Origin: an uncultured cyanobacterium
GTDB taxonomy: Bacteria; Cyanobacteriota; Cyanobacteriia; CAKZMO01
Direction of reading: 5' to 3'
DNA: 64,000 nucleotides
Assembly: GCA_963719515.1 (NCBI GenBank)
Contig: CAVRCJ010000014.1
Coordinates: 1-64,000, forward strand
Made by a program: the position numbers and the translations under genes. The notes under the pieces were generated by a model. The model worked only from the letters and a program-made list of their open reading frames with translations, searched no databases and was not told the origin of the DNA. Positions 3,422 to 64,000 of the stretch are shown piece by piece (positions within the stretch are counted from its first letter, which is position 1; every line of letters begins with the position of its first letter).

Positions 3422-4195
3422 CCCCTCAGAATTGGGGGGCAGGGGGGCCTCCGAAGTTCAACGCTTTGCTAGCCCCCTAAATCCCCCAATTCTGGGGGAC
3501 TTCGGAGAGGTTTATCCCTAAAATTAGAATAGAATTACTTTTTACTTAAATCATTAGAGGCATACTCTGAAAAGGTTGCTTGCCTAATTTCATCTAGAAC
3601 TGTCTCTAAGTCATTCATGACTGCTTGATTGGTAAATCGTAGGACCTTGTATCCGTATTGCTCAAGGTATTCAGTCCTTGCATCGTCATATTGCTCTTGT
3701 TGTTGGTGATAGTCTCCATCAACTTCGATAACTAATTTGTGAGAGGGACAGTAAAAGTCGAGGATGAAGTTCCCGACGGGATGCTGTCGCCTGAACCGTA
3801 GGCCGTCGAGTTTTTTATTTGAGATGGCTTGCCACAAACGAGTTTCTGTTAGGGTAGGATTTTTACGGAGTTCTCGGGCAGCTTGTCGTATGGCTGGCGA
3901 ATTTTCTCGGATATGCCGGGATTGGGAAACGGCTTTTCTTCTATGCATAAATAAGCTTCAGAGTCTGACGTTTATATCAAAGTCATCGATTAGAAGTTTG
4001 ACTCATCTATAGCCCCCTAAATCCCCCAATTGAGAGGACTTCAGAGAGGTTAGAACTCCTTAAAGTCAATAGCCGCGAATAGTATGGCCACTGCTCCGGT
4101 TCCCCCAGAATTGGGGGTTAGGGGGCCTCCAGAGCGTGCAGCTCGATTACGAAATATTTCGCCAGTGGTATCAGAATTGGGGGGCAGGGGGGCTT
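3422..4195. repeat. Five REP-like GC-rich palindromic repeats (CCCCCTAAATCCCCCAATTCTGGGGGACTT family) flanking the DUF559 gene
   Basis: Copies at about 3422-3449 (reverse), 3471-3511, 4011-4050, 4102-4130 (reverse) and 4171-4195 (reverse). 3471 and 4011 share AGCCCCCTAAATCCCCCAATT. Confidence 0.85.
3535..3948 (-). CDS. DUF559 / Vsr-like PD-(D/E)xK endonuclease
   Basis: ARELRKNPT.TE..LW, FRRQHPVGNFILDFYC, LVIEVDGDYH, DDARTEYL..GYKVLRF. Confidence 0.92.
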   Translation of the reverse strand: MHRRKAVSQSRHIRENSPAIRQAARELRKNPTLTETRLWQAISNKKLDGLRFRRQHPVGNFILDFYCPSHKLVIEVDGDYHQQQEQYDDARTEYLEQYGYKVLRFTNQAVMNDLETVLDEIRQATFSEYASNDLSKK

Positions 4196-4287
4196 CAAGG
4201 ATTGGGCGAGCGCGAAACAAGTCATCCATAGCGTCTTCACCCATTACCTCACCGCCAACCTAGCTATCCCAAAACCCAAAACAGTAT

Positions 4288-4515
4288 CTACACCTCATCC
4301 CCCAAATACCGATCCGCGAACGCCTTCGCCGCCTCAGGATCGATCGCCTTCAGCGCCCTGACAATCTCCAAAACCGTCTCCGCCGTTGGGTCACGCTTTT
4401 CATTTACCCAACGGTAGACGTTGTTGCGCTCAACATCTAGCTCAACAGATAACCGATATTGACTAATCTGATACTCCTCAAGCACTTGCTTGAGCGCCTG
4501 CCCTGCTTTTCCCAT
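4288..4515 (-). CDS. XRE-family HTH transcriptional regulator (copy 1)
   Basis: MGKAGQALKQVLEEYQISQYRLSVELDVERNNVYRWVNEKRDP. Paralogous to 60114 and 61216; start at ATG 4515 chosen by alignment. Confidence 0.88.
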   Translation of the reverse strand: MGKAGQALKQVLEEYQISQYRLSVELDVERNNVYRWVNEKRDPTAETVLEIVRALKAIDPEAAKAFADRYLGDEV

Positions 4516-4631
4516 GGCAACCATCGTGTCAGAGGATTACAACCTATCAAACAACCCTGTGGTTGACAGAGCACTTAATGGATGACAACATGATGTCGTT
4601 GTAATGGATGACGTTTAACTACGCTATGACT

Positions 4632-6113
4632 GAATGGCACTGACATAAGCTGTATCAGGCTGCCAGTTTAGCTTTGAGGACAGAACGCGGTTGCTGCATG
4701 CGAGGAAAAGGCTTGGGTCTGCGTTTGACCACTCTCGGTTCGTGGCGATTGGGGCGAAAGGGAACGATGAGCTGAGCAATCAGACGCAGCAATATCTGAT
4801 ACTGCTGGGAGCGTTGCTGGTGGGTTGCGCCAATAAATGCAGGACGGGCGTGATTCAGCTGCTGTCTTGTGCCCTGCAGCGACAAGCGCAATGCCGCTGC
4901 TGTTGAGCGCTCCGAGGCTTGCCACATCAAGGTGCGCAGCAGATTGTAGGCGAGCAGGTGCATCCATAGGTCCTTTTTGACCATCTGTGGGGTCTTGGCT
5001 GCAATCATCTCCATGCCTAGGGTGGTTTTGAGGTGCTTGAGGTTGACCTCAGTGGCCTGCCAGCGCTGGTGATAGAGGTCAATGAGCTTGGCCTTTGGAT
5101 AGCGTTTGGGATCGCTTAAGGTGGTCACCACAATGATCTCAGTTGGCCGAAATCCGCGCTGAGTAATCAGTAGATGCACTTCCCTCACCTCCAGATACAA
5201 CGGCAGCGACTCAAACGCTGCGCTGCTCATTGAGGCTGGACAGCGGGCGGGGCGCTGCCAAACGACCCGGTGGTCGCCAATGCCCAGCTTCTTGCCTCGG
5301 CGAAAGTCGCAGCGGCGAGCATGATGCTTGCGAAACACTCCATCAGCACCAGCCGCCTGGACAAGCGCTAAGTCAGCATAGGTGCCATAGGCGGAATCAG
5401 CTACCACCACATCCTCTGGAGCCAAACAGGCATACAGTTGCCGCGCCAGTTGCCATTCGCTGGTGCCAAACGGAGCAATGGCCGCTTCGAGTACCGCTCC
5501 ACTGGTCAGACAAAACCACACCACCACCCGGGCGATGGGAAACCCACAGCCGGGCTTTTGCGTACTCACCTGCGGATATTCCGCCTGATTGGCAGCAGTA
5601 TCGCTCATCTGTACTCCGGTGCCATCAAACGCTTTCACCCGTCTGCCACACCAGTACTGCTCAACTGGTACTTGCGCGTGTAGGGCACTCGCGCTGCGCT
5701 TGAGTAACGATGGGAGAATCGCCCAGGGCAGCCGTTTGCGGGCTTTGCTATACCCTCCAGTATCCGATGACGGCACCGCCTCACCTGTCATCGCCATCCA
5801 GGTGGTCACCCGCTTGACTGCGTTGCTCAGGCTGCTGTCACCATCTATCACTTGCGATATCCACGCCCACACAACCACCATCGGCGTGTAAAGCACTTGT
5901 CGATAAGTTACTTGGTGTTCCTCTAGCACCTGGGCAATTTGAGATTCGCTGAGCACCTGGGCAAACGGCAGGCCCAGACTGTTTTGGTATTGCTGCTTGA
6001 GAATTTCGGCTCGATTCGGCATAGTAGAGACAGTATTTTGTGGCTTTGATCCCCTGATTGTCCCTAATCATGGGGCTCGAAGCCTTTTTTTGTCTCTTAC
6101 GTCAGTGCCATTC
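4632..6113 (-). mobile_element. Complete IS4-family insertion sequence (1482 bp)
   Basis: TIRs GAATGGCACTGACATAAG (4632-4649) and CTTACGTCAGTGCCATTC (6096-6113) match 17/18. 10-bp TSD CGCTATGACT at 4622-4631 and 6114-6123. Confidence 0.95.
4655..6022 (-). CDS. IS4-family DDE transposase
   Basis: YSKARKRL, KAFDGT, VVADSAYG, LYHQRWQATEVNLKHLK (YREK-like), C-terminal RPNRHEPRVVKRRPK. Confidence 0.95.
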   Translation of the reverse strand: MPNRAEILKQQYQNSLGLPFAQVLSESQIAQVLEEHQVTYRQVLYTPMVVVWAWISQVIDGDSSLSNAVKRVTTWMAMTGEAVPSSDTGGYSKARKRLPWAILPSLLKRSASALHAQVPVEQYWCGRRVKAFDGTGVQMSDTAANQAEYPQVSTQKPGCGFPIARVVVWFCLTSGAVLEAAIAPFGTSEWQLARQLYACLAPEDVVVADSAYGTYADLALVQAAGADGVFRKHHARRCDFRRGKKLGIGDHRVVWQRPARCPASMSSAAFESLPLYLEVREVHLLITQRGFRPTEIIVVTTLSDPKRYPKAKLIDLYHQRWQATEVNLKHLKTTLGMEMIAAKTPQMVKKDLWMHLLAYNLLRTLMWQASERSTAAALRLSLQGTRQQLNHARPAFIGATHQQRSQQYQILLRLIAQLIVPFRPNRHEPRVVKRRPKPFPRMQQPRSVLKAKLAA

Positions 6114-6117
6114 CGCT

Positions 6118-6405
6118 ATGACTCCTTCTACCACCCCAGCCCATCAAAGCTTCCTGTCCGAAATTCCCACAGCCCAATCCTCAGCCCTCGAATCACCCCT
6201 CCAGCTCTATTCCCACCCGCAAGAAGGTCGCGAGCCCGTCAAAATCCTGATCATCGGCAGCCGCCCCGGCGTCAACACCATCGTCCATCGCCTCCACCAG
6301 GTCCGCTTCGCCGAAGTCTTCGAATGGACCCACTTCCTCGACGTCCCCCCAGCCCTCAACACCCAACCTCACGAAACCATGAAGGTACTAATTCGGTACC
6401 TATAA
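6118..6405 (+). CDS. Small uncharacterised cyanobacterial protein, divergent partner of XRE copy 1
   Basis: ATG lies within the right TSD. KILIIGSRPGVNTIVHRLHQVRFAEVFEW aligns with QIMLIGATAWVKNMIAQLYSARIAEVGSW of 59749-59994. Confidence 0.75.
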   Translation: MTPSTTPAHQSFLSEIPTAQSSALESPLQLYSHPQEGREPVKILIIGSRPGVNTIVHRLHQVRFAEVFEWTHFLDVPPALNTQPHETMKVLIRYL

Positions 6406-6531
6406 ATGCAGCCGTAAATGCAAGACGTATAGCTCAGCCCAAAAAGCCCACAAAACAAGCGATCGCTCCTACCCAGCTCAGAATCCAGCCGCGCCCAAGC
6501 CCCCCAGCCTCCACCAGCAGACCCTTTTGGA

Positions 6532-6592
6532 GGGGGCCTGGGGGACGCAATCGTCCTCCAGAAGCGGGGGTTTGGGGGCAGGCCGCCCCCAA
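6532..6592. repeat. Pair of GC-rich REP-like hairpins
   Basis: GGGGGCCTGGGGGACG-CAAT-CGTCCTCCA and GGGGGTTTGGGGGC-AGGCC-GCCCCCA between convergent genes. Confidence 0.6.
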
Positions 6593-6703
6593 GACAATCG
6601 GCACAGGCGCAGCCAAACCCTGCAGCTTCAGGGCGTCACCCTACGCCAACGACACCCCACACCGTGGCTCTAGTGCGTCACGCTAAGCTGACATTCTACG
6701 GAC

Positions 6704-8455
6704 TCAAACCTTCGCCTCTGGCCGATCTCCAAGGGCGATCGCCTTCCCCACCTGAGGGTGTCCCCAGATTATCGTCTCCTCCTTATAAATCACCATCCCC
6801 GGCTTCGCCCCCTTCGGCTTATACACATGCTTCAGGTCCGTATACACCACCGGAGCCTGCTCACCCTCACGGGCGCGGCTGTGGTAGGCCGCCAAATCCG
6901 CCGCCTGCTGTAAATCCGCTGCTTGCGCCACCGCGCCGGGGTCTAGTCGCAGCAGCAAATGGCTTCCCGGAATCTCCTGGGTGTGGAACCACAGATCGTA
7001 CTCGGTAGCCACCTTAAAGGTCAGCTCGTCGTTTTGGCGGTTGTTGCGGCCCACCACAATATCAAAGCCGCTCGGAGACCGATAGCGGTGAAACTGCGTC
7101 TTCTCCGTACGAACCTGGCGCGAGGCTTCGTTGAGGTAGCCTTGCTGCTGCAGCTCCTCTTGGGTATCCCGCAGGGACGCTAGGTCGTCGGGGACCTGAT
7201 AAGTCTCCGGCTGAGCGATTGCCACCTCCACCTGCTCTAGGTAGGCTATCTCCGTCTCTACATCCTGCAGCAGCGGCTCGATGGCCCCCCGCGATCGCTT
7301 CATTTTCTGGTGGCGCTTGTAGAAGGCTTGGGCGTTCTGCACCGCGTTCTTTGTGGGGTTAAGGGGAATTTCTACGGGCTTCTCCGTCTCGAAGTCCGCG
7401 AGCTGAATGGCGGTCATGCCCGGCTGCCACTCGTGCAGATAGGCCATCAGCAAGTCTGCCCGCTCCCGATACTCGTCAGCTCGGTCAGACTGCTGCAGCC
7501 GCTGCCGGAAGTCAGTCGCCTTCACCCGCAGCTTTTTGAGCAGATTGGCGAGCTTTTGCTGCAGCTGGTGGCGCAGCTGGGCAAACTCCTGCTGGTTGAG
7601 CTGATCCCGGTAATACTGGGCCACCAGCGCCTGTACCGACGGCGCAGGGACTGTGGGGGCGATCGCCGTCCAGGGCATCACCGTATAGCCCGACTCCAGC
7701 CAGCCTGGAGCAAACGTCTTCTTCTCTAGAGTGTGCAGCCACTCCCGCCAACAGACAAACAGCCGCGCCCAGTCCGACGGATCGAGGTCATCTGTAGACT
7801 GATCGGGGTCCAGGCCAGCAGCTTGAGCCATCTGCCGCGTCAAAGACGGACTGAGGCCCCGGTAGGTCTTGAGCAGCATTTTCCAAAGCTTTCCGGGCAC
7901 TAGGCCGACGCGCTCTTGCCAGTGGGATTGGGGCTCATCGAGCTTTGGCTGAGGGTCGCGTAGCGCAGGGGGAGGCTGGTAAGGCTGACCCGTTTGAATT
8001 GTTCTGACGCTTGACTGCTGCGTTCCTACCTGGTGGGCAGCTGTGACGATTTGCTGATCGGCTGTTGTCAGAATAATATTGCTGTACTTGCCCATAATCT
8101 CAATATAGAGATGCCATAGGCATACCTCGTCGGGGCGGCGGGCAAAGCGCAAATCAACGATTCGCTCCCAGGGCGATGTCTCAATCGATACAAGGGCCAG
8201 GCCACCCAGCTGGTGGCGGAGCTGTTGACTAAAGGTAAAAGTGTCAGGGACCTTTGGCGGCGGCGTATCGAGACAGAGACGGGCCGATTGAGGGTGCCAC
8301 GATGCCGTCAGCCAGCCGCGCCCCTTCAGGGTTCGCAGGGCCAGCGCAATAGTGAAGCGATCGCGCTGATAGACCTGCTCTAGACGAGACGGCAACCAAT
8401 CTTGGCGCAGCTCAGCACAAAGCGCTGTCAGTGTTGTAAAGTCGACGGTCTGCAC
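6704..8455 (-). CDS. rqcH: NFACT/RqcH (FbpA-like) ribosome quality-control protein
   Basis: LYIEIMGKYSNIIL, NAQAFYKRHQK, VGRNNRQNDEL, WFHTQEIPGSHL, KPKGAKPGMVIY. Confidence 0.9.
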   Translation of the reverse strand: MQTVDFTTLTALCAELRQDWLPSRLEQVYQRDRFTIALALRTLKGRGWLTASWHPQSARLCLDTPPPKVPDTFTFSQQLRHQLGGLALVSIETSPWERIVDLRFARRPDEVCLWHLYIEIMGKYSNIILTTADQQIVTAAHQVGTQQSSVRTIQTGQPYQPPPALRDPQPKLDEPQSHWQERVGLVPGKLWKMLLKTYRGLSPSLTRQMAQAAGLDPDQSTDDLDPSDWARLFVCWREWLHTLEKKTFAPGWLESGYTVMPWTAIAPTVPAPSVQALVAQYYRDQLNQQEFAQLRHQLQQKLANLLKKLRVKATDFRQRLQQSDRADEYRERADLLMAYLHEWQPGMTAIQLADFETEKPVEIPLNPTKNAVQNAQAFYKRHQKMKRSRGAIEPLLQDVETEIAYLEQVEVAIAQPETYQVPDDLASLRDTQEELQQQGYLNEASRQVRTEKTQFHRYRSPSGFDIVVGRNNRQNDELTFKVATEYDLWFHTQEIPGSHLLLRLDPGAVAQAADLQQAADLAAYHSRAREGEQAPVVYTDLKHVYKPKGAKPGMVIYKEETIIWGHPQVGKAIALGDRPEAKV

Positions 8456-8595
8456 GGGTAATGTTTAGCGATTGTCAGCAACAGATCCCTACACGAACAA
8501 GATTCAGTAAATTACGCACCATATCTTGGATATTACGCAGAATATCGCCAGAATGGTATCAAATTTAACTCCTGCGCCTGTAAGCTTAAATTGCT

Positions 8596-8859
8596 ATGGA
8601 TATTAAGCTAATCAACATTGGATTCGGCAATATCGTCTCTGCTAACCGCGTTATTGCGATTGTTAGTCCGGAGTCAGCTCCCATCAAGCGTATCATTAGT
8701 GATGCCCGAGAGCGAGGAGAGCTGATCGACGCCACCTACGGTCGCCGTACGCGGGCTGTCATCGTCACAGATTCAGGGCATATTGTTCTGTCGGCAATTC
8801 AGCCGGAAACCGTCGCCCATCGCTTTGTCAGCAACAAGGAGTATACAAACGGCCAGTAA
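8596..8859 (+). CDS. remA: RemA / DUF370 family protein
   Basis: [28 protein letters not shown]...[14 protein letters not shown]...LSAIQPET. Confidence 0.92.
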
Positions 8860-9324
8860 GCGGTACCATACCGCCCTGTAGTAAGGTGTCTTAGGTTAAC
8901 TTTCCGGTAAGTATAGAGGTTTGGGTAAGAAATAGGTTGTTTTGTGCATCTGAATCCCAGAATAATCCAGTGTGGGCCTATGCCTTTTGGTACAATACGG
9001 ACACAAATCGGTGTGGCAACCGATTTACATCCGCTATGGGCCTATGCATTAATCTACTTAGGCCGTAGTCTGATTAGGCCGTAGTCTGAGTCCGTAGTCT
9101 GGAGCGGCATGATTCGAAACAATACGGTTTGAGCAATACACCACTGCATCACAACCCGTCAGGGAGCTCTTGATATAGGCATTGAGTGTAGCAACTCAAC
9201 GGTCCGCGTTACATAAGTTTTATGTCTGTATCCACGTTTATTGTAATTTCGCAGCGTAGTTACTAATAGTGACAACGATGCTTCCCTATGTGAAATAGGA
9301 CACGATCTACCCAAGGTTGCGCAC

Positions 9325-10007: not shown

Positions 10008-11909
10008 ATGCCTCAGAAAACACCTTTCGCTAAACGGGCAGCAGAGCTGTTGCGCCGCGTGCTGCCTGGCCTCGGGGTAACGGGTTTAGTTATTGGCGCT
10101 CGGGCGCTGGGCCTACTGCAGCCGCTGGAGCTGTTTGCCTTCGATTGGATGCTGCGGTTTCGCCCTTCTGAGCCGCGCAGCGAGCGGGTTACCATCGTCA
10201 AAATTGATGAGGCTGACGTCGAGAAGTTGGGAGGCTATCCCATCACCCAAGAGACGCTGGCGAATATCGTAGAGCAGGTACGGCGGTATCAGCCAGCAGC
10301 TATCGGGGTCAATATCCTCAGCGACTTACTGGCAGAGGAGTCTTCAGACAAGCTAGTGAGACAATTTCAGCAAACGCCGACTCTATTTGCTGCAGATAAG
10401 GTGCTGCTGCCGCAAATTGCCCCAATCAATGGCGTTCCGTCAAGTCGGGTCGGCTTCTCTGATATTTATGTTGACAACCAAGATAGTCACCTGCGCCGCA
10501 TTATTCTTGGCGTGAGCGATCCCCTAAAGCCTAAGAACTACCGCTTCTCTTTTGCGATTCTTTTGTCACAGGCATACCTGGAGCCGCTCGACTACGAGCT
10601 ATTCAACGGGGTTGCTGACCCCCACACGATGCGGTTTGGCGAGGCCGAGATTCCACGGCTCAACTCGTACTCTGGAGGGTACATCGGCAGCATTCAGGAC
10701 AATGGTGTGCAAACGTTGATGAACTTTCGTAGTGGACCCGATCCGTTTCCTGTTCTCCACCTTCAGGCTTTAGGGTCACCTGAGCGGGCTGAAAACCTGA
10801 TCAAGGATCGGATCGTGATTATTGGCGTTTCCGACGTCCAGACCCGTCCCCCTGTCAAAACTAATGCGATCGCCATCAGTCAGCCCGACGGAACACCACA
10901 GGATAGAGTCGACGCCGTCGATATTCAGGCCCACGCCGTCAGCCAGATCCTCAGCGCCACCCTCGACAACCGTAAATTTCTAAAGACTTGGTCTGAGCCC
11001 TGGGAATACGCCTGGATTCTCCTATGGAGCGCCGTCGGCCTTGCCGTTTGGATCCGCCTCAACGCGCCCAACCGCATCTTGATGTACGTCCTCGCCACCA
11101 GCATCTTAGTAGCCGGCGTAAGCTACGTCTCTATCCTTTGGGGCTACTGGATTCCGCTAGTGCCGCCGCTGCTGCTGATTGCCTTCAACGGGTTTGAATG
11201 CGTCATTTTGAACGAGTATCAAGGTCTACAGGCCCGCAGCCGGGAGCGCAGACGGATTGCCAACGAGCGGCAGCGCGCCATCAAGCAAGCCTTCAACATC
11301 ATCCACAATGGTCCGCTGCAAAACCTAGCGAGCTTAATGCGCGCAACCCAAGATGAGGACATTCCCAAACAGCAGCTCGTTGACCAGCTTATTGCCTTGG
11401 ATGCCGAGATTCGGCAGATTAGCGACTATCTGATCAGCGAGGCCTTTACAAAAGAGAGCAGCTTTTACCTACAAAATGACTCCAGACTAGACCTAAAGCT
11501 ACCGCTGCACGAGCTGTTCTACCAGGTCTTCAGTAAAACTCTAGAGCGGGATTTGGTCGGATTTCGCGACATCAAGATCAAAATGCGGTCTTTTGAGCCA
11601 CTGGGCGAGAACAAGCTTGATTTTGACCACAAGCGGGAGCTGTGCCGTTTCTTGGAGGAGATGCTGTGCAACATCGGCAAGCACGCCATTGGCACCTCTC
11701 GGGTGCAGGCAACGGGCAAAATCAGCGATACCCACTACATCCTGCGGGTGGAGGACAACGGACCTGGCTTTTCCTCAGGGCGGAAGGGAGAAGGCACCAA
11801 ACAGGCTCACGGCATTGCCTCTCGGCTGGGGGGAGCCTTTAAGCGTCAGTCCAACAGCCGCCGCAAAGGAACGGGCTGCGAACTCGTTTGGCCGCTAAAA
11901 TCGATGTAA
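10008..11909 (+). CDS. CHASE2-domain sensor histidine kinase
   Basis: CHASE2 (LELFAFDWMLRFRP, IQAHAVSQILSA), three TM helices, IHNGPLQ His-box, NIGKHA / EDNGPG / GTG ATPase boxes. Confidence 0.88.
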   Translation: MPQKTPFAKRAAELLRRVLPGLGVTGLVIGARALGLLQPLELFAFDWMLRFRPSEPRSERVTIVKIDEADVEKLGGYPITQETLANIVEQVRRYQPAAIGVNILSDLLAEESSDKLVRQFQQTPTLFAADKVLLPQIAPINGVPSSRVGFSDIYVDNQDSHLRRIILGVSDPLKPKNYRFSFAILLSQAYLEPLDYELFNGVADPHTMRFGEAEIPRLNSYSGGYIGSIQDNGVQTLMNFRSGPDPFPVLHLQALGSPERAENLIKDRIVIIGVSDVQTRPPVKTNAIAISQPDGTPQDRVDAVDIQAHAVSQILSATLDNRKFLKTWSEPWEYAWILLWSAVGLAVWIRLNAPNRILMYVLATSILVAGVSYVSILWGYWIPLVPPLLLIAFNGFECVILNEYQGLQARSRERRRIANERQRAIKQAFNIIHNGPLQNLASLMRATQDEDIPKQQLVDQLIALDAEIRQISDYLISEAFTKESSFYLQNDSRLDLKLPLHELFYQVFSKTLERDLVGFRDIKIKMRSFEPLGENKLDFDHKRELCRFLEEMLCNIGKHAIGTSRVQATGKISDTHYILRVEDNGPGFSSGRKGEGTKQAHGIASRLGGAFKRQSNSRRKGTGCELVWPLKSM

Positions 11910-11925
11910 GTTTGGAACATATTTC

Positions 11926-12507
11926 ATGATCACGACTCTGGTTGTCGCTACGGGAAACCCCGGCAAGGTTGCCGAAATGGAGACCTATCTCAAACCCCTA
12001 GGGGTATCGCTACTTCTAAAGCCGAAGCACATCGACGTTGAAGAGACCGGCAGCACCTTTATGGAAAACGCTCGTCTCAAGGCATCTCAGGTGGCTAAGA
12101 CCATGAACCAATGGGCGATCGCCGACGATTCGGGGCTACAGGTCGACACCTTGGGCGGGGCTCCGGGACTCTACTCGGCCCGCTACGCCGCCACGCCTGA
12201 GGCCTGCATTGAACGGCTGCTTGAGGAGATGAGGGGCGATCGCGATCGCGGTGCCCAATTTGTATGCGCCATCGCAATCGCCGACCCCAACGGAGCGATC
12301 GCAATGGAGGCCGAAGGGCTCTGCCGCGGGCAAATCTTAGAGCACTCTCGCGGTGAGGGCGGCTTTGGCTACGACCCGGTGTTTTACGTCCCGACCGAGG
12401 AAATGACCTTTGCGGAAATGCCGCCGGACGTCAAAGACAAGATTAGCCATCGAGGACGGGCTTTTCAAGCGCTGATACCCGCCCTTAAGCCGCTGCTCGC
12501 AGCTTAA
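11926..12507 (+). CDS. rdgB: Non-canonical purine NTP pyrophosphatase (RdgB/Ham1)
   Basis: ATGNPGK, ENARLKA, ADDSGL, GAPGLYSARY, GFGYDPVF, KISHRGRA. Confidence 0.95.
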   Translation: MITTLVVATGNPGKVAEMETYLKPLGVSLLLKPKHIDVEETGSTFMENARLKASQVAKTMNQWAIADDSGLQVDTLGGAPGLYSARYAATPEACIERLLEEMRGDRDRGAQFVCAIAIADPNGAIAMEAEGLCRGQILEHSRGEGGFGYDPVFYVPTEEMTFAEMPPDVKDKISHRGRAFQALIPALKPLLAA

Positions 12508-12518
12508 ACGACTCCGCC

Positions 12519-55600: not shown

Positions 55601-56168
55601 AGGCCTCGTCAGTCTCGTCGTTAGCAGTGGCTTCGTCAGCTGGTTCGTCTACTGCAGATGTGGCTTCCGGCTCTTCGGCCTCAGGTTCTGTCGCCTCAGG
55701 CGCTGCTTCGGGCTCCGCTTCAACAACCGCTGATTCAGCGTCAGCCGCCAGAGCCGCCACGGCATCCTCAGAAGATGAGGCAGAACCTGGAGCCTGGGGT
55801 GGTGCCGCTTGGGTGGCGGCAGCCGTCGGGGATTCTGGAGTGGGGCTAGGGGAAGCGTTAGCGGCGCTGGCTAGGGACGGAATCTTTTTGTGAATCATCA
55901 GCTGCTGAATCACGCCCGCGTCGAGGTGGGTTCTTCCTCGCGTTTTAGACGCCTCAAGAATCAGCTCGCCTAGCTCTTTTCCGGTGGCATCGGCTTGCTC
56001 GCGGGTGTGATTGCTCTGCTGCGATACTTTCTTGAGCAGGTAGTCAAGTTCTCGGTTCCCGCGACGGGTCGACACCTGGAGACCGCCCTCGGAGAGGACT
56101 TGCTTTGCGCTTACTCGCATGGTTTTGACAGCTTGACGCTGTTCGAGACCGGACTGGGAATTTGCCAT
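55599..56168 (-). CDS. Hypothetical protein with acidic low-complexity tail
   Basis: Globular N-half (GLQVSTRRGNRELDYLLKK...RGRTHLDAGVI) and A/E/P-rich C-half. Confidence 0.7.
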   Translation of the reverse strand: MANSQSGLEQRQAVKTMRVSAKQVLSEGGLQVSTRRGNRELDYLLKKVSQQSNHTREQADATGKELGELILEASKTRGRTHLDAGVIQQLMIHKKIPSLASAANASPSPTPESPTAAATQAAPPQAPGSASSSEDAVAALAADAESAVVEAEPEAAPEATEPEAEEPEATSAVDEPADEATANDETDEA

Positions 56169-56219
56169 CTGAAGTTATGCTTCCTTGTTGCTGGGGCAGT
56201 TTTGGGCCGTCTATCACTC

Positions 56220-56607
56220 TACAGGAATATTACGTATTCGTGGCAACGGACTCAATCCGCCTGGGGGTGTCTCTTTTCTCGCGCCATAAGAGGGCGACGC
56301 TGGCCTAATATCTGCTTTGATGCCGATGGCGAGCCGCTGGACGATGTCTCGCATACCGCCTGACTGGACGATTGGAATTTTATCTCCTGAGCAGAGCGCT
56401 AACAGGGTGACGGGAAATATCTTGCACTGTTTAAACCACGGCTGCCAGTCGGGCTGGCTAGTGGACCCAGGCGATCGCTCGGTGCTAATGTTCCGCCCGC
56501 AGCGGCAGCCGGAGCCGTGCGCTGGGGAGGACAAGTTAATGGTGTTAGAGAATACAAATTTAGCGCTGACGACGAGTCAGATGTTTGGCTGGCTGCAGAT
56601 GAATTGA
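56220..56607 (+). pseudogene. Uma2 family endonuclease remnant
   Basis: PPDWTIGILSPEQSANRVTGNILHCLNHGCQSGWLVDP; 5' part frameshifted or missing. Confidence 0.75.
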
Positions 56608-56635
56608 TACTCCTTATTTGAATGGTGATGGCTCA

Positions 56636-56975
56636 TGGTTGCAGCATCTTCAAAGTGACTCAGCCTCGAAGCGTTTCTAGCGCTGCCCGATTGCAATAAC
56701 CATGACCAGACCTGACCTATGTCTCGTTTGAGCGCCTGCCTGTAGGTTGGCTGGAGGATGAGCCTTGCCCTGTTCCCCCGGATTTGGCAATCGAAATTAT
56801 TTTCCCTAATCAGTCGTTTGGCATGATGGCGGCGAAGGCGGCAGATTATATTGCGGCGGGAGTGGCGCAGGTTTGGGTTGTGGATTCTCAGGCGAGGACG
56901 ATTACGGTGTTTATCCCGAGCGCGGTTCCGGTAACGTATCGGGGTGAGGCGGTGTTCAGCGGGGCGGGCCTGTAG
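56636..56975 (+). pseudogene. Second Uma2 family remnant
   Basis: MVAASSK*LSLEAFLALPD, then PDLTYVSFERLP...PPDLAIEIIFP...YIAAGVAQVWVVD, with stop, internal deletion and truncation. Confidence 0.75.
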
Positions 56976-57178
56976 GTGATGTGTTGGGGTAGGAAAATTT
57001 GCCTTCAGAAAACTAAATAAGCACTGTTCTAATTTTGTCGTAAGACCACTTTGTCTCACAGGATTTGGGCCTACTTTTGGACTAAATTGAAAAGCTGTCG
57101 CAGGGCTCATCTCCTGATTGTCTCTCGGAAGATCATGAGATTTGAGTAGTTGTGGTTTTGGGGCAGCTATGCTGTGTA

Positions 57179-57265
57179 ATCCAACGGTGAAGTTGTGCGG
57201 CTACCAATAACCTTTGAATCCCAAGCAAAATCTTTCGCTAGTCCGCCCTAGCCTGATTGTTAGGT
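57179..57265 (-). other. Integron attC-like recombination site (87 bp)
   Basis: Minus strand ACCTAAC (RYYYAAC)...GCGGACTA...TAGCCGC...GTTGGAT (GTTRRRY); imperfect hairpin with a bulged base. Confidence 0.6.
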
Positions 57266-57383
57266 TGTGTTTCTGTTAGAGCCATTGGGAATAAGAATAG
57301 ATCTTGAACAGGCTATATCAGTACTTCAAAATCCAGGATTTGCACATGACGATTTAGCCAACACTCCGGACAGTTTTTGATGG

Positions 57384-58321
57384 CTAACGGTGGAATGCGG
57401 GTTTCAGGCCTCTTCCACGGCAGCTTGGCAACGAGAAATCGAGGGTTTCAGCGCTTGTCAGAAAAGTGTCCGGACATTGTTTAGCATAAGTAAATTGAAA
57501 GTGTGGCATAGGTACAGTTGAGTTAATACAGCAGTCACTATATTTGTTCTTGGAATCACATAGACAGAGATCTTGCTCTTCATAACCACGTTTTTTAAAG
57601 TAGGTATAATCCCTTTCAATTTGTTGAACTTCATAATTCCACCTTTGAAAAGGATTATTTAAAACTGAAGCTAGGCCTCCTACGAGAGTGTAATCATATT
57701 GATCAACTCGTTCCCCAGTTTGAGGATCTGCCGAAAACAAGACGGCAAACTTGTTTGCAGGATTTTTACAATAGCTAGATGATCATATCTGATATTTATA
57801 ATCACTCTTGCACGCATCTCACCATCGTATATTTCGCCATCATTATGACCTCATGGCTTGCGTGGATTAATCTCTTTATCACAGACGCCGCAATATTCTT
57901 TACGGATCATTCCAGAGCTTATGAATAATTTATAAGGAAATAGTTCTTGCCACTTCGCCACATGCTCTTCAATAAAATCGAATTTTCCAAGAATCCAAAA
58001 ATCTTTCCAGTAATCTGGCAGATACTTTTTCGGAGACTTAATAGACCACAAGCCCTTCTCAGTATTTTCAAGCTCACACCAAGCATCATAAAATTCACGC
58101 TTCTTGAGTAATGAAAATGCAAGAAAATAGCTGCTGTGAACAGCGACTGCCTCTTGTAAGCACCAAATATGAGCGGCTAATTCTTTCTGATGAAGTTTTA
58201 AAGCTTTTTCTTTCAGGGTTGCAAGTAATCCTATTGTTTGGCTTTCATCATATCTACACTCAGCAACCCTGGCAATGAAATTAACAATTTCCTCAAGTGA
58301 AAGATTACTACTACTCACCAA
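57384..58321 (-). pseudogene. Cys-rich protein with C-terminal SEC-C-like motif, disrupted
   Basis: CGVC...NPRKP-TGA(57851-53)-GHNDGEIYDGEM continues in frame. A one-base-short A5 run (57763-57767) shifts into ...CLCDSKNKYSDCC...PH. Confidence 0.7.
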
Positions 58322-58363
58322 AGCTCTCCAGGAGTCAGTTGAATATGCAAATGAAGATTTTAC

Positions 58364-59083
58364 TCAATCAAGAAGATCTGCATCTGAAATAGCTTGGCTC
58401 TTCTCAAGCCCTTCCATTCGAGGAACATTAGAAAACTCTGCCTGAGCTAAAATCTTATTCATCACTCTAGGCAGACTTTTCTCAATTTCGGTTGAAGAGC
58501 CGGAACATTGAATTTCACGAATGTATCCATTTTCATTATCAATAATGAGAGTAACACGGAACTCAGGATCCTTACTCAATCTTTCTCTATTTGCCCGGAT
58601 ATAGTCAAGAATTAAATCTTTAGCAATTGGCGCAATAATAGACGATATAACTATCGTCCCAATTACAGTAAGCGTAATTGGTTCAGAATACAAAGCTGAT
58701 GTTCGATATTCACCATCATTGACGCAGATATTTGCTTTTATTCTTTTTATTTTAGAGCTATTTAAATACTTAAAAAAGCTTTCTGCGCCAGAGGCGAATA
58801 CCTTTTCATGAAAAGAGCCTTCATTACCGTATTGATCACTTCCTAAAGGAACAAATAAGATATTTGCATCTACTATCTCTTGCCTAACATGAATAGACAA
58901 CTCTTCATTGTGCTTCCAGTAGCCCAATCCATGAGCTACATCTTCTTTCACTTTAATAGAAATGTTATCGCTATTGATACCTGCAAAGTTTTTACGCCCA
59001 GCACCAACCCGCCTGACTTGTAAACTTCGTAGGTCATATTCTGGACGTAAATCATCTTCCATCTCGGAGTTAACCTTCTTCAT
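58364..59083 (-). CDS. BrnA-like antitoxin N-terminus fused to an unrelated AT-rich protein with a hydrophobic helix
   Basis: MKKVNSEMEDDLRPEYDLRSLQVRRVGAGRKNFAG resembles BrnT-partner antitoxins and overlaps the brnT stop. The remaining ~200 aa are unrelated. Confidence 0.65.
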   Translation of the reverse strand: MKKVNSEMEDDLRPEYDLRSLQVRRVGAGRKNFAGINSDNISIKVKEDVAHGLGYWKHNEELSIHVRQEIVDANILFVPLGSDQYGNEGSFHEKVFASGAESFFKYLNSSKIKRIKANICVNDGEYRTSALYSEPITLTVIGTIVISSIIAPIAKDLILDYIRANRERLSKDPEFRVTLIIDNENGYIREIQCSGSSTEIEKSLPRVMNKILAQAEFSNVPRMEGLEKSQAISDADLLD

Positions 59084-59342
59084 ATAATTTCCGCTCCTGA
59101 CGAGTTACCTCTCTTGCACTAATCAGACGAATTGAACTTACTCTCTCTGTGTATGAAGAAATTAATATACGCCCTTGATTCGATTGACCAACAATTAGAT
59201 AACGGTCTTCATCTATAGAATGGTCTGGATCATAGAAGTCGATGTAAAAAGGATCACCGAAAACAGTCTTAGCCTCGTTGAAAGAAACTTGATGTTTCAG
59301 TATGTTCTTTTTGGCTTTATCCTCATCCCACTCAAACTGCAT
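59070..59342 (-). CDS. brnT: BrnT family ribonuclease toxin
   Basis: MQFEWDEDKAKKNILKHQVSFNEA..VF.DP...DPDHS..EDRY..VG...IRLISAR. Confidence 0.92.
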   Translation of the reverse strand: MQFEWDEDKAKKNILKHQVSFNEAKTVFGDPFYIDFYDPDHSIDEDRYLIVGQSNQGRILISSYTERVSSIRLISAREVTRQERKLYEEG

Positions 59343-59457
59343 ACAGCTATTTTAACATTGGCTACCTGAGTGGATCATAGCTGAGAGATGTATCTTTTAC
59401 TACTCATTGTCGTACGGCAACCTTAGCCTTCACCAGCAGTGTGAGCAACCTAATCAG

Positions 59458-59690
59458 ATATCCAACGTCATCTGACGGACAACACCCCACTTTCCGGATC
59501 TTATCAGTCATATCTGACTAATAACACTTTATTTCTCGGACTTATCCACCACGTCTGACGTCTAACTCTGGAAATCCAGGGGGTTATCCGTCACTTTTGC
59601 TTGATAATCCTGGCCTCTAGAAGACTATCTGTCACTTCTGACGGATAGCACAGCTATGTGGGGTGTTATCCGTCAATTGCTGGGGGACGT
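59458..59690. repeat. Array of six degenerate ~24-bp palindromes, period 41-43 bp
   Basis: Units start at 59458, 59501, 59542, 59584, 59625, 59666. Consensus TTATCCGTCA-N4-TGACGGATAA with unique ~17-bp spacers. Confidence 0.85.
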
Positions 59691-59748
59691 TGAGCATAAA
59701 GAGCGGTGCAGCATAGTTGCCGGGCGCTGCAATTCATCTAGTACTGTT

Positions 59749-59994
59749 TTACCGACTTCCCCGAGGCCGCTGCAACACAGCAATCACCTCATCCGGCTTC
59801 CCCGTCGGCACCAGCCGTGACCAGCTCCCCACCTCCGCAATCCGGGCGCTGTACAGCTGAGCAATCATATTCTTCACCCAAGCTGTCGCTCCAATTAGCA
59901 TAATCTGATCCATCGGAGGCTCTAGCGCACTCGTAGGATTGAGAGTGTTAACAGCAGGTTCTTTCGCGGCATCAGACGGCAGATGTCTCGACAT
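59749..59994 (-). CDS. Small uncharacterised protein, divergent partner of XRE copy 2
   Basis: Homologous to 6118-6405 (I..IG....V......L...R.AEV..W). Confidence 0.75.
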   Translation of the reverse strand: MSRHLPSDAAKEPAVNTLNPTSALEPPMDQIMLIGATAWVKNMIAQLYSARIAEVGSWSRLVPTGKPDEVIAVLQRPRGSR

Positions 59995-60023
59995 AGGAAG
60001 TATCCAAGATAGAAAGAAAAGTG

Positions 60024-60078
60024 ATGTTGACAGTTGGCAACACTCTCATTGTAGCTTGATGTCGCCAATCGTCAACAT
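60024..60078. promoter_or_regulatory. 19-bp imperfect inverted repeat between divergent genes (candidate operators / divergent -35 boxes)
   Basis: ATGTTGACAGTTGGCAACA (60024-60042) versus reverse complement of 60060-60078 ATGTTGACGATTGGCGACA. Confidence 0.65.
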
Positions 60079-60113
60079 TTACTTAATTTTGGCCCTCTGA
60101 CACGATTAGAGGC

Positions 60114-60362
60114 ATGGGAAGAGCCGGAAAAGCGCTACGACAGGTGTTAGAGACTTACAGCATCAGCCAAAACCAGCTGGCTGTCACTATGGACGTTGGG
60201 CGATCGAGCATCAACCGCTGGGTTAACGAAAGCCGCGACCCTGCCGCCGAAGCCGTCGCCGATATCGTTCACGCGCTAGAGAAAATCGATCGCTCAGCCG
60301 CCGAAGATTTTCTTACTCTCTACCTCGACCGTAATACAGACGGAGAATCTCTAGATGGCTAG
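60114..60362 (+). CDS. XRE-family HTH regulator (copy 2)
   Basis: MGRAGKALRQVLETYSISQNQLAVTMDVGRSSINRWVNESRDP. Confidence 0.9.
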   Translation: MGRAGKALRQVLETYSISQNQLAVTMDVGRSSINRWVNESRDPAAEAVADIVHALEKIDRSAAEDFLTLYLDRNTDGESLDG

Positions 60363-60491
60363 GATTTTCGTTAGAACTACAGCGATCGCCATAATTCTGA
60401 TGCATAAACACACCTGCGCAAAACGCTTGCGGGGTATTTGGGCATCGGCTGATTTATAGTCGCAAACGGATCGCGCCACAAAAGCGAATTC

Positions 60492-60740
60492 TCAAGCAAG
60501 AGCTGTTTCAATATCATCACTCGAAGCCACAGGCTGCGCCCTGAGCAGCTTATGGTGCCCAGGGCGCAGCCCCAATGATTCGTAAGTTCGCCCGCTCCTA
60601 TCGCTAAACTCGATCTCAAACGCCGAGCCCCCTGCCAAAGCTTCAACGACTGTACCCACCTGCCCCCGCCGCAGATTGTACTGTGGGAGTTCAGTCACTA
60701 GGGCAACAACATCAAGCAGTTTAATCGCGTCTTGTGACAT
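60492..60740 (-). CDS. DUF4926 domain protein
   Basis: IKLLDVVALV.ELP..NLRRGQVGTVVE.LA.G.AFEIEFSD..GRTY. Confidence 0.85.
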   Translation of the reverse strand: MSQDAIKLLDVVALVTELPQYNLRRGQVGTVVEALAGGSAFEIEFSDRSGRTYESLGLRPGHHKLLRAQPVASSDDIETALA

Positions 60741-60758
60741 TCTTCCTCTCCTCAAAAG

Positions 60759-61103
60759 TTATAGGGGATAGCAAGTTGTTAGTCTCGGAACAGTAGACCC
60801 ATGCTCAATGATCCAACCGCTGCGGACGGGCACACTTCTATTCTGCCATTGGAGTACAAAGTCTACAGTGCATCGCTGGCCAAAAGAATCACAGCGCCCA
60901 GCTTGAGCCTCATGCGTCCTGATCATTTGGAAGAGAATTCGGCGCAGCTCCTCAGCATCGGCAGCCGTCAGGCCCAACATTGAGGCAAACAACCTCGCTT
61001 TGTGCTTGTCCTCACGATGCTCCAGATTTAGACGATAGTCGCGGAGCTTGCGAATATCGATCGCTGCATTCTCAACGTAAGGCAGTAGCGTTGTCGAGTC
61101 CAC
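60759..61103 (-). CDS. DUF6883-like protein (putative toxin partner of DUF4926)
   Basis: LP..ENAAIDIRKLRDY.LN.EH...KHKARLF...LG...SGWIIE....PRLTTCY. Confidence 0.75.
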   Translation of the reverse strand: MDSTTLLPYVENAAIDIRKLRDYRLNLEHREDKHKARLFASMLGLTAADAEELRRILFQMIRTHEAQAGRCDSFGQRCTVDFVLQWQNRSVPVRSGWIIEHGSTVPRLTTCYPL

Positions 61104-61157
61104 GGGCTAAAGCACATTCGGCATATCCGCCAAAGAATGCCCAGTTTCGCGATCGCC

Positions 61158-61202
61158 CTACCGACTTCCCCAAGGCCGCTGCAGCACAGCAATTACCTCA
61201 CC
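61158..61202 (-). pseudogene. 3' remnant of the XRE-partner small gene
   Basis: Encodes GEVIAVLQRPWGSR*, nearly identical in DNA to the end of 59749-59994 (DEVIAVLQRPRGSR*). Confidence 0.8.
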
Positions 61203-61215
61203 TATATTGAACGGC

Positions 61216-61464
61216 ATGGGAAAAGCCGGAAAAGCCTTAAAGAAGGTTCTCGAAACCTATAGCATCAGCCAAAACCGCCTAGCCGTTACCATGGGCATTA
61301 GCCGCATCACCGTCAACCAGTGGTTCAACGAAACCCGAGATCCCCTCGCTGAATCTATTCCCGACATCGTCCCTGCCCTCGAAGCCTTAGACGCCGAAGC
61401 GGCCAAAGACTTCATCGCTTTCTACCTGAACCGCAACGCAGACGGAGACCCCTTAGATAGCTAG
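61216..61464 (+). CDS. XRE-family HTH regulator (copy 3)
   Basis: MGKAGKALKKVLETYSISQNRLAVTMGISRITVNQWFNETRDP. Confidence 0.9.
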   Translation: MGKAGKALKKVLETYSISQNRLAVTMGISRITVNQWFNETRDPLAESIPDIVPALEALDAEAAKDFIAFYLNRNADGDPLDS

Positions 61465-61551
61465 ATTTCCATCAGCGATCGCGGCAATGCTGAGACGCAA
61501 ATACACCTGTAGGGAACTCTTACAGAGTGCTAGAGCGCCAGCTGACAAAAC

Positions 61552-61890
61552 ATGGTTCAACCCTGCGGGTTTACGTTTCCTTCAGCAAAAGCCGAATACC
61601 TCCTAACCTACGCCTCTGAGCCAGGTCGGGGTGGAGATAAACAGAACTTCTGGCGACGAGTCCTCGGGTTTACCTCCGCTTCCAATATTCGAAAGGCCAT
61701 CCTAGCACTAGTCTCTGCCGATATATTGGTATTGATGAGGAGAGGTGCTTATGGCGATCGCTACGAGGCTTCAATCCAAATCACAGGCCCAAGCGGAAAC
61801 ACTCGCCAGGTGCGTACAGTTTGGATAGTCTTAAACGGAGAGAACACGGCTCGATTTGTAACAGCATTTCCGGCTCGCAGGCAGAAGTAA
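61552..61890 (+). CDS. DUF6883-like protein
   Basis: KAEYLL...GGDKQNFWRRVLGF...YGDRY....ITGPSG....VRTVWIV......ARFVTAFP. Confidence 0.7.
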   Translation: MVQPCGFTFPSAKAEYLLTYASEPGRGGDKQNFWRRVLGFTSASNIRKAILALVSADILVLMRRGAYGDRYEASIQITGPSGNTRQVRTVWIVLNGENTARFVTAFPARRQK

Positions 61891-61892
61891 CC

Positions 61893-62351
61893 ATGACCTT
61901 CAAGCTATTTGATACAGTCCAGCTCCTAGAAGACATTTCCTTAGACAACGACGCCACCGCCCCCGCCGGTACTCTAGGTTCCGTGGTAGACGTCCTCAAC
62001 CAGGGCGAAGCGTACCTAGTAGAATGCCTCGGTGGCTGGGTAAAATCCAATGCCGACGGAGATCTTGCTTCATCCGAACAGGAAGATCCCGAAGCCTTCA
62101 GGGAGACACTTGGCGTTGAAACACTCTATCCCAATCAGATCCAGCTTATGACGCCTGCTGAGGAGAGCGTAGGTGTCCGAGCACAATTGTTGCTGCTGAT
62201 TGAAGACATGCCCGATGTGCTCCTAAAAGAGGTCAAAGACTTTGCTGAGTTTATTCAGCAAAAGTCGACGCCGCTCAGGCCACATCAACAACCGCTCACT
62301 GATGACTCAACGTCGCTTACAGAATCAAAAAAGCGATCGCCCTCCCTCTAA
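61893..62351 (+). CDS. DUF4926-like protein with C-terminal helical extension
   Basis: FKLFDTVQLLEDI...PAGTLGSVVDVLNQGEAYLVE; tail LLKEVKDFAEFIQQK. Confidence 0.7.
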   Translation: MTFKLFDTVQLLEDISLDNDATAPAGTLGSVVDVLNQGEAYLVECLGGWVKSNADGDLASSEQEDPEAFRETLGVETLYPNQIQLMTPAEESVGVRAQLLLLIEDMPDVLLKEVKDFAEFIQQKSTPLRPHQQPLTDDSTSLTESKKRSPSL

Positions 62352-62518
62352 AAGACAACCTGCCGCACATTGGCCCAACAGTGCGTAATGCTCAACTATG
62401 ACTGCCGCTCATACACCTGATGACTGCAGGTTTTTGATCAGTTCTAACTGCAGCGATATTGTGAGGTTACTGGCAAAGACAGCCAGACATTCAAAGACTC
62501 TCACCGGTAGGTATCCCC

Positions 62519-62788
62519 ATGCAGACCATCCAACAACGCCTTCAGCACAACACATTTGAACTCATCGTCCCCCGGCCGTCACTAGGCGATCGCGTCTGTT
62601 CTGCACTCCATACCCTGAAGGAATTTACCCTTAATCTGGCGACCTCAACGCGAGAGCCCCAGATTAAGGTATCCCAGAATCGCGTCGGTCAATCTCAGTG
62701 GACTGTTTATGACCCCACTAACGGTTACAGAAACACCTTCGCATCTGAAGATGCGGTGCAGGCTTGGATCGAGAATCGGTATCGTTAA
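62519..62788 (+). CDS. Small hypothetical protein
   Basis: EPQIKV....G..QWTVYDP.NG....FASEDAVQAWIENRY motif typical of small cyanobacterial proteins. Confidence 0.7.
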   Translation: MQTIQQRLQHNTFELIVPRPSLGDRVCSALHTLKEFTLNLATSTREPQIKVSQNRVGQSQWTVYDPTNGYRNTFASEDAVQAWIENRYR

Positions 62789-62896
62789 GCATGCCGCGTT
62801 TTTGCACAGAGCAGGTAAGGCGATCGCCAGCAGCCTACACTACCGGCGATCGCCCTAACTATCACATTGGCGGGAATGACGTTACGCCAACCGGGA

Positions 62897-64000
62897 TTAA
62901 CAGATCGACATCACCTTCTCGCGCTCGGTCGGCACGTCGTAGCGGTCAAGCATCATCACCTTGTGCCAAGCCGCGACAAAATCCTTGACCATCCGCTCTT
63001 GGCCATCATTTGCGCCGTAGACTTCAGCGACCTGACGCAGCTCCGCGTTTGAGCCGAAGATGAGGTCACAGCGAGTGGCCGTGAACTTCGTTTCGCCCGT
63101 CTTGCGATCATCGATATTGAACATCATCTCGTGCTCGTCAGCCGGCTTCCACTCGTAGTCCATGCTCGTCAGGACGCGGAAGAAGTCGTTAGTCAAGACA
63201 CCCGGGCGATCGGTAAAGATGCCGTGCTTCGAATGGTCCCAATTCTGGTCGAGGGCGCGCATGCCGCCGACGAGGGCCGTCCATTCAGGCGCAGTCAGCG
63301 TCAGCAGCTGGGCGCGATCGAGGAAGATGCGTTCTGGCTGCACTCGGTAGCCGACGGCGTCATTGTGGTAGTTGCGGAAACCATCTGAGACCGGCTTCAG
63401 CCACTCGAAGCTCTCAACATCGGTCAGCTCCTGCGTCGTATCCATCCGCCCTGGGGTGAACGGAACAGTGACCTCAACCCCAGCGTCTCGCGCCGCCTTC
63501 TCCACAGCAGCGCCGCCGCCCAAGACAATTAGGTCCGCCATCGAAACCTTCTTGTTGCCCGACTGAGCGCCGTTGAAGTTCGCCTGAACACCCTTCAGCG
63601 TGGATAGAACCTGACTCAGCTCCTGCGGGCGGTTCACTTCCCAGTCCTTCTGCGGATCGAGGCCAACCCGCGCCCCGTTTGCGCCGCCGCGCTTGTCAGA
63701 GTCGCGGTAGTTTGACGCCGAGGCCCAAGCGGCAGATACGAGGGCGGAAACGGAAAGGCCGCTCGACAGAATCTCGTTCTTGAGCGATGCGATATCGCCG
63801 TCGTTGATCACCTCGTGGTCCAGCGCCGGAATCGGATCCTGCCAGGGCAGATCTTCCGCCGCCACTTCTGGGCCAAGATAGCGACTCTTCGGGCCAAGAT
63901 CTCGGTGAGTCAGCTTATACCAGGCTTTCGAAAACGTGTCGCTGAAGTAGCTAAAGTCGTTGAGGAAGCGCTGGCAGACCTCGCGGTAGGCCGGGTCTTC
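62897..64000 (-). CDS. katG: Catalase-peroxidase, C-terminal part (5' end outside window)
   Basis: Open to window end: [62 protein letters not shown]. Confidence 0.96.

Follow-up and report, generated by a model that had tools for sequence, protein, structure and literature searches.

A phased array of palindromic boxes as the probable attI platform of a decayed integron in a cyanobacterial genome

We analysed a stretch of 64,000 bp (hereafter, the window; C14:1-64000) from the genome of an uncultured cyanobacterium (5.28 Mb in 21 contigs, GC 0.56-0.58). It carries at 59458-59690 an array of six imperfect palindromes which, to judge from its homologs, very probably belongs to a sedentary chromosomal integron that has decayed, and forms its attI-side platform. 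The palindromes themselves we are somewhat inclined to read as binding boxes for the integron integrase IntI, a tyrosine recombinase, and the combined reading, a decayed attI platform lined with putative IntI boxes, appears probable. The copy in the window is a relic: its integrase gene (intI) is gone and its core has ATT for GTT. Since it has no intI, a mutated core and a weak attC site, its identity as an integron rests on homology to the other copies. The remnant of the platform extends over 59451-59678 on the plus strand, that is, ~230 bp located between the cassette insertion point, on the left, and the position at which intI starts in other copies, on the right.

The array had been singled out in an earlier note made from the letters of the window, and its positions and spacing were reproduced. 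The units start at 59458 (U1), 59501 (U2), 59542 (U3), 59584 (U4), 59625 (U5) and 59666 (U6), with steps of 43, 41, 42, 41 and 41 bp. A repeat search of the window retrieved families with 41/42/41 bp spacing, in agreement with these unit starts, and the 24-bp consensus palindrome, TTATCCGTCA-N4-TGACGGATAA, had three matches in the window with up to 3 mismatches (U2, U4, and U5) compared with none in 100 shuffles. Tandem Repeats Finder did not list the array because its units are only 65-77% alike. The initial description of six palindromes was correct in that the array is real, but its units are unequal and most of them have one good half. Unit 1 (59458-59482) retains the inner palindrome CGTCA..TGACG alone and carries a 2-bp deletion with respect to the other copies; a GTTA-type box, inversely oriented, makes up its right half, TGACGGACAAC. 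Unit 2 (59501-59524) is the palindrome TTATCAGTCA-TATC-TGACTAATAA, with 3 mismatches to the consensus, and unit 3 (59542-59565) is a weak palindrome with position-specific conservation between copies (..CACCAC.TCTGACGTCTAA). Unit 4 (59584-59607) combines a left half that is the exact consensus (GTTATCCGTCA) with a degenerate right half, unit 5 (59625-59648) is the palindrome CTATCTGTCA-CTTC-TGACGGATAG, and unit 6 (59666-59675) consists only of a left half-site (TTATCCGTCA), which in other copies lies 10-20 bp before the intI start codon. U1 and U2 thus retain the right half and U4 and U6 the left one, U3 being weak. The same was seen in an alignment of 18 arrays (the five copies of this genome plus 13 arrays from other genomes), where in most units one half only keeps the consensus, consistently across copies.

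Beyond the individual units, the whole block has an inverted arrangement about position ~59571; for example, the arms 59473-59490 and 59658-59675 are 94% complementary. The spacers, 17-18 bp long, are also mutually similar, with S1 resembling S2 directly and S3-S5 corresponding to the same sequence inverted. The best-conserved element is GGTGTTATCCGTCA together with its complement; units 1, 2, and 5 carry it one way round and units 4, 5, and 6 the opposite way. We infer that the array is composed of ~10 boxes, GTGTTATCCGTCA and its complement, alternating in orientation and forming six inverted pairs that recur every 41-42 bp on one face of the helix. The boxes start with GTTA, like the integron R box (GTTRRRY). 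As the earlier note had stated, none of this is CRISPR-like: CRISPR arrays have identical repeats and unique spacers of 21-72 bp, whereas the shorter spacers here are alike and conserved between five copies, the repeats within the array show the low similarity given above, and no cas families were found among the neighbours scanned.

Blastn searches detected the ~230-bp block, with both units and spacers, in four further places of the same genome, with 73-79% identity: C11:445464-445747, C1:255948-256163 (C1a), C1:277588-277803 (C1b), and C18:29363-29160. The spacers had initially been taken for unique, unrelated sequences, a view that has to be abandoned since they resemble each other and are conserved along with the units in these four copies and in relatives. 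A profile of the five copies of this genome matched the window at 59451-59678 (nhmmer, E 7.8e-71). Each of the four same-genus genomes searched contained the array, two of them in complete form and two in the form of partial matches, and it also occurred in a single genome from another family, making a total of 6 out of 61 genomes including that of the window. When the five copies of this genome were compared together with 6-kb flanks, the similarity began at the identical left base and extended to the right for 200 to 1300 bp, and the left flanks were mutually unrelated. This left edge reads AAC|, the complement of the integron G|TT crossover, in 17 of the 18 aligned arrays; the exception is the window, where positions 59452-59454 are AAT. 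On the opposite strand, the conserved part terminates in ...TATATAG and the variable part starts with TTAGGC, TTATGC, TTAGCC, and similar sequences. These letters identify the edge as the G|TT crossover in the core sequence of integrons (GTTRRRY), the attI "canonical insertion point" cited in passages of PMC9668308. In the window, the boundary occupies the homologous place, but it reads ATTAGGT (59448-59454, minus strand, crossover G|TT at 59454|59453) versus GTTAGGC, GTTATGC, or similar in the other copies, which would correspond to a mutated attI core or R box.

On the right side of the block, intI was found directly downstream, full-length or as a remnant, in 16 of the 18 aligned copies. 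In C1a, C1b, and C18, an ATG and codons for ..QPPRLLDQVKQVLR.. come immediately after the array. A search of the whole genome with the integron integrase family TIGR02249 retrieved a single place, the C18 remnant (C18:28932-29104), which was also matched by PF13495. The TIGR02249 match covers model positions 2-39 and 295-314 only; therefore, this gene has collapsed by internal deletion, and the same search yielded no intact integron integrase in this genome. Using an intact IntI as tblastn query, we located remnants to the right of the arrays in L001, L002, L003, L005, L006, L008 (two arrays), L009, and L010; 3 of the 4 own-genome copies other than that of the window have intI remnants beside them. 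Two of the remnants matched parts of the TIGR02249 model: L010:6013-6618 (positions 1-81, E 3.9e-24) and L005:5554-5808 (positions 133-183, E 1e-15). In the window, the tblastn search found nothing at E<1 in 56001-64000 and TIGR02249 had no match; likewise, tblastn detected no intI remnant beside the C11 copy. The window and C11 copies, and only these, have in common a right flank (59679-59731 in the window, plus strand) that occupies the intI start position of the other copies, with blastn similarity up to 59731 and no detectable intI remnant within it. Short reading frames of this flank end alike in the window (59679-59731) and in the C11 copy (L004 6224-6276), with ..HKERCSIVAGRCNSS and ..HEKQCSVAAGRSS, respectively, before the stop. 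After the intI remnants of C1a, C1b, and C18 there is a ~700-bp repeat (L001 6524-7222 and 8743-9465; L003; L002 6597-7259) with a 131-aa ORF belonging to no Pfam family, which recurs elsewhere without array.

In a sample of 401 genomes of the same class, 127 had TIGR02249 matches above the cut-off of the family, frequently with several matches each. Of the 30 loci with full-length intI (>470 bits, cut-off 265) that were retrieved, 7 had a match to the array profile directly upstream of the gene (L016, L020, L024, L031, L032, L035, and L038); four of these seven genes are uninterrupted and three have one stop. The other loci bear different boxes, outside the array family of the window. A complete integron was found in L044, where intI (322 aa, 11543-12511) and the array (11309-11531) are followed by a 2.3-kb AT-rich cassette and an attC site of 87 bp (8969-9055, GCCTAAC...GTTAGGC, dG -16.8), with further attC-like sites at 2198-2261, 395-484, and 120-211. 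The same locus, from the relative G089, contains at 2262-8968 an apparent 6.7-kb cassette with GC 0.61-0.69 between cassettes of GC 0.35-0.38; it is unusually large and of very different composition, both odd for an integron cassette. The start of many full-length intI matches lies close to the end of a contig, at a distance of 20-600 bp, suggesting that the repeated upstream platform may break short-read assemblies. Another genome, G051, has several arrays, each with a short intI remnant, in tandem and in one orientation, 2.5-5.4 kb apart (L011 3109-3346, 6204-6358, and 8702-8847; L008 6193-6419 and 11651-11876). Toxin-antitoxin and ATPase genes lie between them, and brnT/brnA come after one array, as in the window; these tandem platforms possibly originated by attI x attI recombination or by duplication.

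The left side of the array in the window shows the features of integron cargo. It is an AT-rich cassette block (57266-59453, minus strand), with GC 0.35-0.44 versus 0.57 for the genome, containing four ORFs that read away from the array: brnT (59070-59342; PF04365, E 5.4e-26), a 239-aa partner (58364-59083), a 156-aa ORF (57851-58321), and a 118-aa ORF (57384-57740). The 239-aa and 156-aa ORFs, as well as an 81-aa ORF on the other side of the array, had no Pfam or NCBIfam match. Each of the five copies of this genome has an AT-rich left block of this kind (GC 0.29-0.47), 2.1-5.4 kb long and with genes directed away from the array, but their contents are unrelated; the cargo of C18 includes a DNA methylase and a 386-aa partner, and that of C1b a DUF3800 protein, a dynamin-like GTPase, and a T5orf172 protein. 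The AT-rich block of the window ends near 57180-57270, where a candidate degenerate attC site may close it (57179-57265, minus strand; ACCTAAC ... GGCGGAC ... GCCGC ... CAACTTCACCGTTGGAT), with a weak fold (dG -5.7) and a 3' part resembling that of the attC-like site L008:17875-17961 (..CAACTTCACCGTTAGAC). An attC site is an imperfect palindrome of 55-140 bp with the layout R''-L''...L'-R'. Better attC-like sites of the same family border the cargo in the C11 copy (C11:442943-443023) and in the C1b copy (C1:273701-273785). Overall, clear attC sites exist in L044 (four), L002/C1b, C11, and L008, as compared with this single degenerate candidate in the window. A scan with a strict attC pattern found no sites, and relaxed patterns were noisy (45 matches with paired ends genome-wide; with the loosest one, 25 versus 54 in a reversed-genome control), so that the attC argument rests on the position, orientation, and likeness among the sites.

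Within the cassette block, we also considered as attC a 124-bp element at 57359-57480 with terminal inverted repeats (TCCGGACAGTTTT / AAAAGTGTCCGGA), and rejected it: it has 12 dispersed copies with 80-98% identity, unlinked to arrays and inconsistent in orientation. More copies occur in same-genus genomes, and it looks like a MITE-like repeat. In four metatranscriptome runs of one study, contigs ~93% identical to the brnT cassette (58300 to ~59400) were found and none on the array; these contigs, from RNA libraries, are those of a relative and do not bear on transcription of the array. The array lies, as originally described, between brnT on the left and the XRE-partner gene on the right, where the 81-aa ORF is accompanied by an HTH_3/XRE gene 420 bp from the array. 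A 42-bp stretch occurs twice there (59750-59791 and 61159-61200, 93% identical), upstream of two paralogous HTH_3/XRE genes (60114-60362 and 61207-61464), each of which adjoins a DUF6883 + DUF4926 pair (60492-61103, minus strand, and 61552-62351, plus strand). These sets have the appearance of a duplicated small-gene module of toxin-antitoxin type, in a region (59700-62900) whose GC content, 0.49-0.54, is below the genome average.

Similar phased boxes are found upstream of many of the cyanobacterial intI genes examined. We collected 75 upstream regions of at least 300 bp of full-length cyanobacterial intI genes, for which 60 extra loci were fetched beyond the first 30. A 9-mer box (one mismatch allowed) occurred in at least four copies in 63 of the 75 regions and in at least five copies in 37 of them; only 1 of 25 shuffled controls reached four copies and none reached five. 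Measured between boxes that point the same way, the distances are most often 40 bp (46 pairs) or 41 bp (43 pairs), with a further maximum at 80-84 bp. Among 30 upstream regions, those of other integrase lineages showed other boxes in the same layout, such as GTTAGACAGA..TCTGCCTAA in L021 and L027, TTAGGCGGAAA..TTTCCGCCTAA in L041 and L042, and TATACGGAAAGTTTCCGTATA in L037. In several upstream regions both the unit and the spacer are palindromic and the boxes therefore flip orientation about every 20 bp, and most boxes begin with (G)TTA, as the R box does. Phasing by approximately four helical turns is thus a family-wide design, within which the box sequence varies. IntIs sharing 95-96% identity have arrays whose units correspond one to one by homology, and the variable letters are not constant among the boxes of a single array. 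Concerted evolution of the boxes was considered and rejected. Since this difference between boxes of one array holds within a clade at 85-96% identity, a box type per locus is ill-defined. A limited test of whether IntI residues co-vary with box letters was uninformative, the columns with the highest mutual information being simply hypervariable, and a simple scan found no promoter inside the array. In seven loci (L015, L017, L021, L022, L027, L041, and L042), GTAC-type palindromes such as GTACTATTTAGTGCAC precede the start codon of intI by 20-50 bp; they are lacking in the array family of the window. They seem to resemble the cyanobacterial LexA box, which would point to SOS control of these integrases.

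The most likely binder of the boxes is the integrase, because of their position, their core-like GTTA start, and their phasing. Alternatively, they might be operators of a different regulator, a host transcription factor or a nucleoid protein, controlling the intI and cassette promoters on what would still be an integron platform. Inverted pairs of ~10 bp with a 4-bp centre are typical for dimeric helix-turn-helix proteins, the GTAC..GTAC palindromes just before the ATG in several other intI upstream regions may resemble the cyanobacterial LexA box, and no co-variation of IntI residues with box letters was seen in the limited test. In other phyla, intI is known to be under SOS control, as stated in passages of PMC3108266. 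However, we consider an operator function of this type unlikely. The exact half-site has 18 matches in the genome, 8 of them in the five arrays, compared with ~10 expected according to our own estimate; it is therefore at about chance level elsewhere, which would leave a global regulator without other targets. In addition, the box sequence varies by integron lineage and the architecture stays constant, which fits a factor encoded by the element itself, and the sole gene beside the array in most copies is intI. Much less probable is that the palindromes work as hairpins in RNA or single-stranded DNA, either as a series of stem-loops leading the transcript of intI or of the cassettes, close to the tandem stem-loop RNA array of the earlier note, or as folded attC-like sites. 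Each unit can indeed form a 10-bp stem with a 4-nt loop, and attC sites are described in passages of PMC8946536 as acting as folded single strands. Two units of the window, 2 and 5, have changes on both arms, which had been regarded as compensatory, but both are peculiar to the window copy. Across the 18 arrays, 73.3% of the cells were paired as compared with 72.5% after shuffling, where 53 of 500 runs gave a value as high; for covariation, the score was 0.137 versus 0.121 (15 of 500), so pairing was barely above that of the shuffled controls; inner stem positions were unpaired in 40-50% of the sequences and unit 1 never pairs at three outer positions. The array had no Rfam match, and the retention of the consensus in one half alone, the same across copies, also speaks against hairpins.

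Repeated phased sites are likewise typical of transposon ends, plasmid iterons, and centromeres, and the HTH_3 gene to the right of the array in the window would make an operator array of this XRE gene conceivable; we regard all of these as very improbable. Pfam scans of the neighbours of the window copy and of the four other copies of this genome found no transposase, Rep, or Par genes, all copies are located on chromosomal contigs beside intI or its remnants, and the XRE gene adjoins just 1 of the 5 copies of this genome and never adjoins the 13 arrays of other genomes. A Tn7- or Mu-like transposon end or a MITE, suggested by the 3+3 inverted layout, was rejected as well, as the similarity runs on the right into the intI remnants and stops on the left at AAC. 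The ideas of the earlier note fared accordingly. Its general proposal of a cooperative protein-binding array survives as the reading that we favour, and every specific version of it fails: the conserved neighbour is intI, which discards a centromere, an iteron, or a transposon end, and joint action with the XRE/small-protein module is at odds with 16 of 18 aligned arrays having intI or its remnant on that side and with the C11 copy having neither intI nor XRE. The check that it had recommended, co-occurrence with the XRE and small-protein pair in this genome and in relatives, revealed an array that recurs widely and a pair that adjoins the window copy only. It had also named a match to a catalogued repeat or insertion sequence end as something that would refute it; in spirit this is what happened, since the element class, the integron attI platform, is known, but the phased array itself is uncatalogued in the sources searched.

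Compared with known systems, the decayed platform with its putative IntI boxes resembles attI1 of class 1 integrons (a simple site, L and R, plus DR1 and DR2) in its location, in copies with intI, between intI and the first cassette, in its end, which outside the window copy is G|TT, and in the presence of extra recombinase-type boxes upstream of the core. Both DR1 and DR2 of attI1 begin with GTTA. The differences concern size and arrangement: ~230 bp here and ~65 bp in attI1, ~10 boxes as six inverted pairs phased by 41-42 bp here and two direct repeats in attI1, the boxes here, as putative IntI sites, reaching within 10-20 bp of the intI start codon. The attP site recombined by phage lambda Int offers another parallel, as its arm-type array makes up a ~240-bp recombination region with several phased accessory recombinase sites around the core. 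In lambda, Int contacts the arm sites through a separate N-terminal domain, and their sequence is unlike that of the core, whereas the boxes described here resemble the core type and IntI is not known to have an arm-binding domain. According to passages of PMC8946536, DR1 and DR2 are additional sites to which IntI1 binds; they favour attI x attC recombination, and the Vibrio attIA lacks them. With pseudo-integrons and CALIN, the window copy shares the condition of a chromosomal integron remnant whose recombinase gene is destroyed or missing and whose cassette is retained. As excerpts of these surveys have it, about a third of intI genes are pseudogenes (Nemergut 2008; PMC2426708), CALIN are integrase-less arrays with at least two attC sites (Cury 2016; PMC4889954), and integron decay is common (both sources). 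The window, with no intI nearby, differs from CALIN in having one weak attC candidate in its block and from pseudo-integrons in having no intI pseudogene. What has survived in it is the attI side, which was not searched for in these surveys as far as their excerpts describe them.

If the boxes are accessory IntI sites, they would represent a much longer version of the DR1/DR2 pair of attI1. IntI bound to them would form a phased protein-DNA array that could help to load the recombinase at the crossover point. Since the array reaches 10-20 bp from the intI start codon in intact copies, the intI promoter would lie inside it, and IntI sitting on the boxes might exert feedback on the transcription of intI and of the cassettes. 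More tentatively, we can imagine that the cyanobacterial attI is of a different design from all those studied, a ~230-bp landing pad with 10-12 core-like boxes in phase at intervals of two to four helical turns, on which about a dozen IntI protomers might assemble as an ordered filament or wrapped complex, positioning the crossover and shutting off the buried intI promoter. Such a design may allow for multi-gene cassettes of 2-7 kb with defence and toxin-antitoxin systems.

Both the presence of integrons in cyanobacteria and their decay are already known. The full-text literature that we searched, mostly without subscription journals, contained no description of an extended, phased, multi-box attI, and this architecture thus appears to be undescribed. 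The attI site has been dissected in few integrons only, mainly class 1 and Vibrio, and, as indicated in parts of Cury 2016 (PMC4889954), survey tools cannot search for it, its sequence being unknown for most integrons. The phased box array provides a recognisable signature of the attI side in cyanobacteria, by which integrase-less platforms can be found and their cassettes delimited, such as the toxin-antitoxin genes here and the DNA methylase in another copy. In the window, the array is a relic beside a captured brnT cassette, neither a new RNA nor a partition system; in the family at large, the box array gives a testable hypothesis for how the integron integrase may be loaded and regulated.
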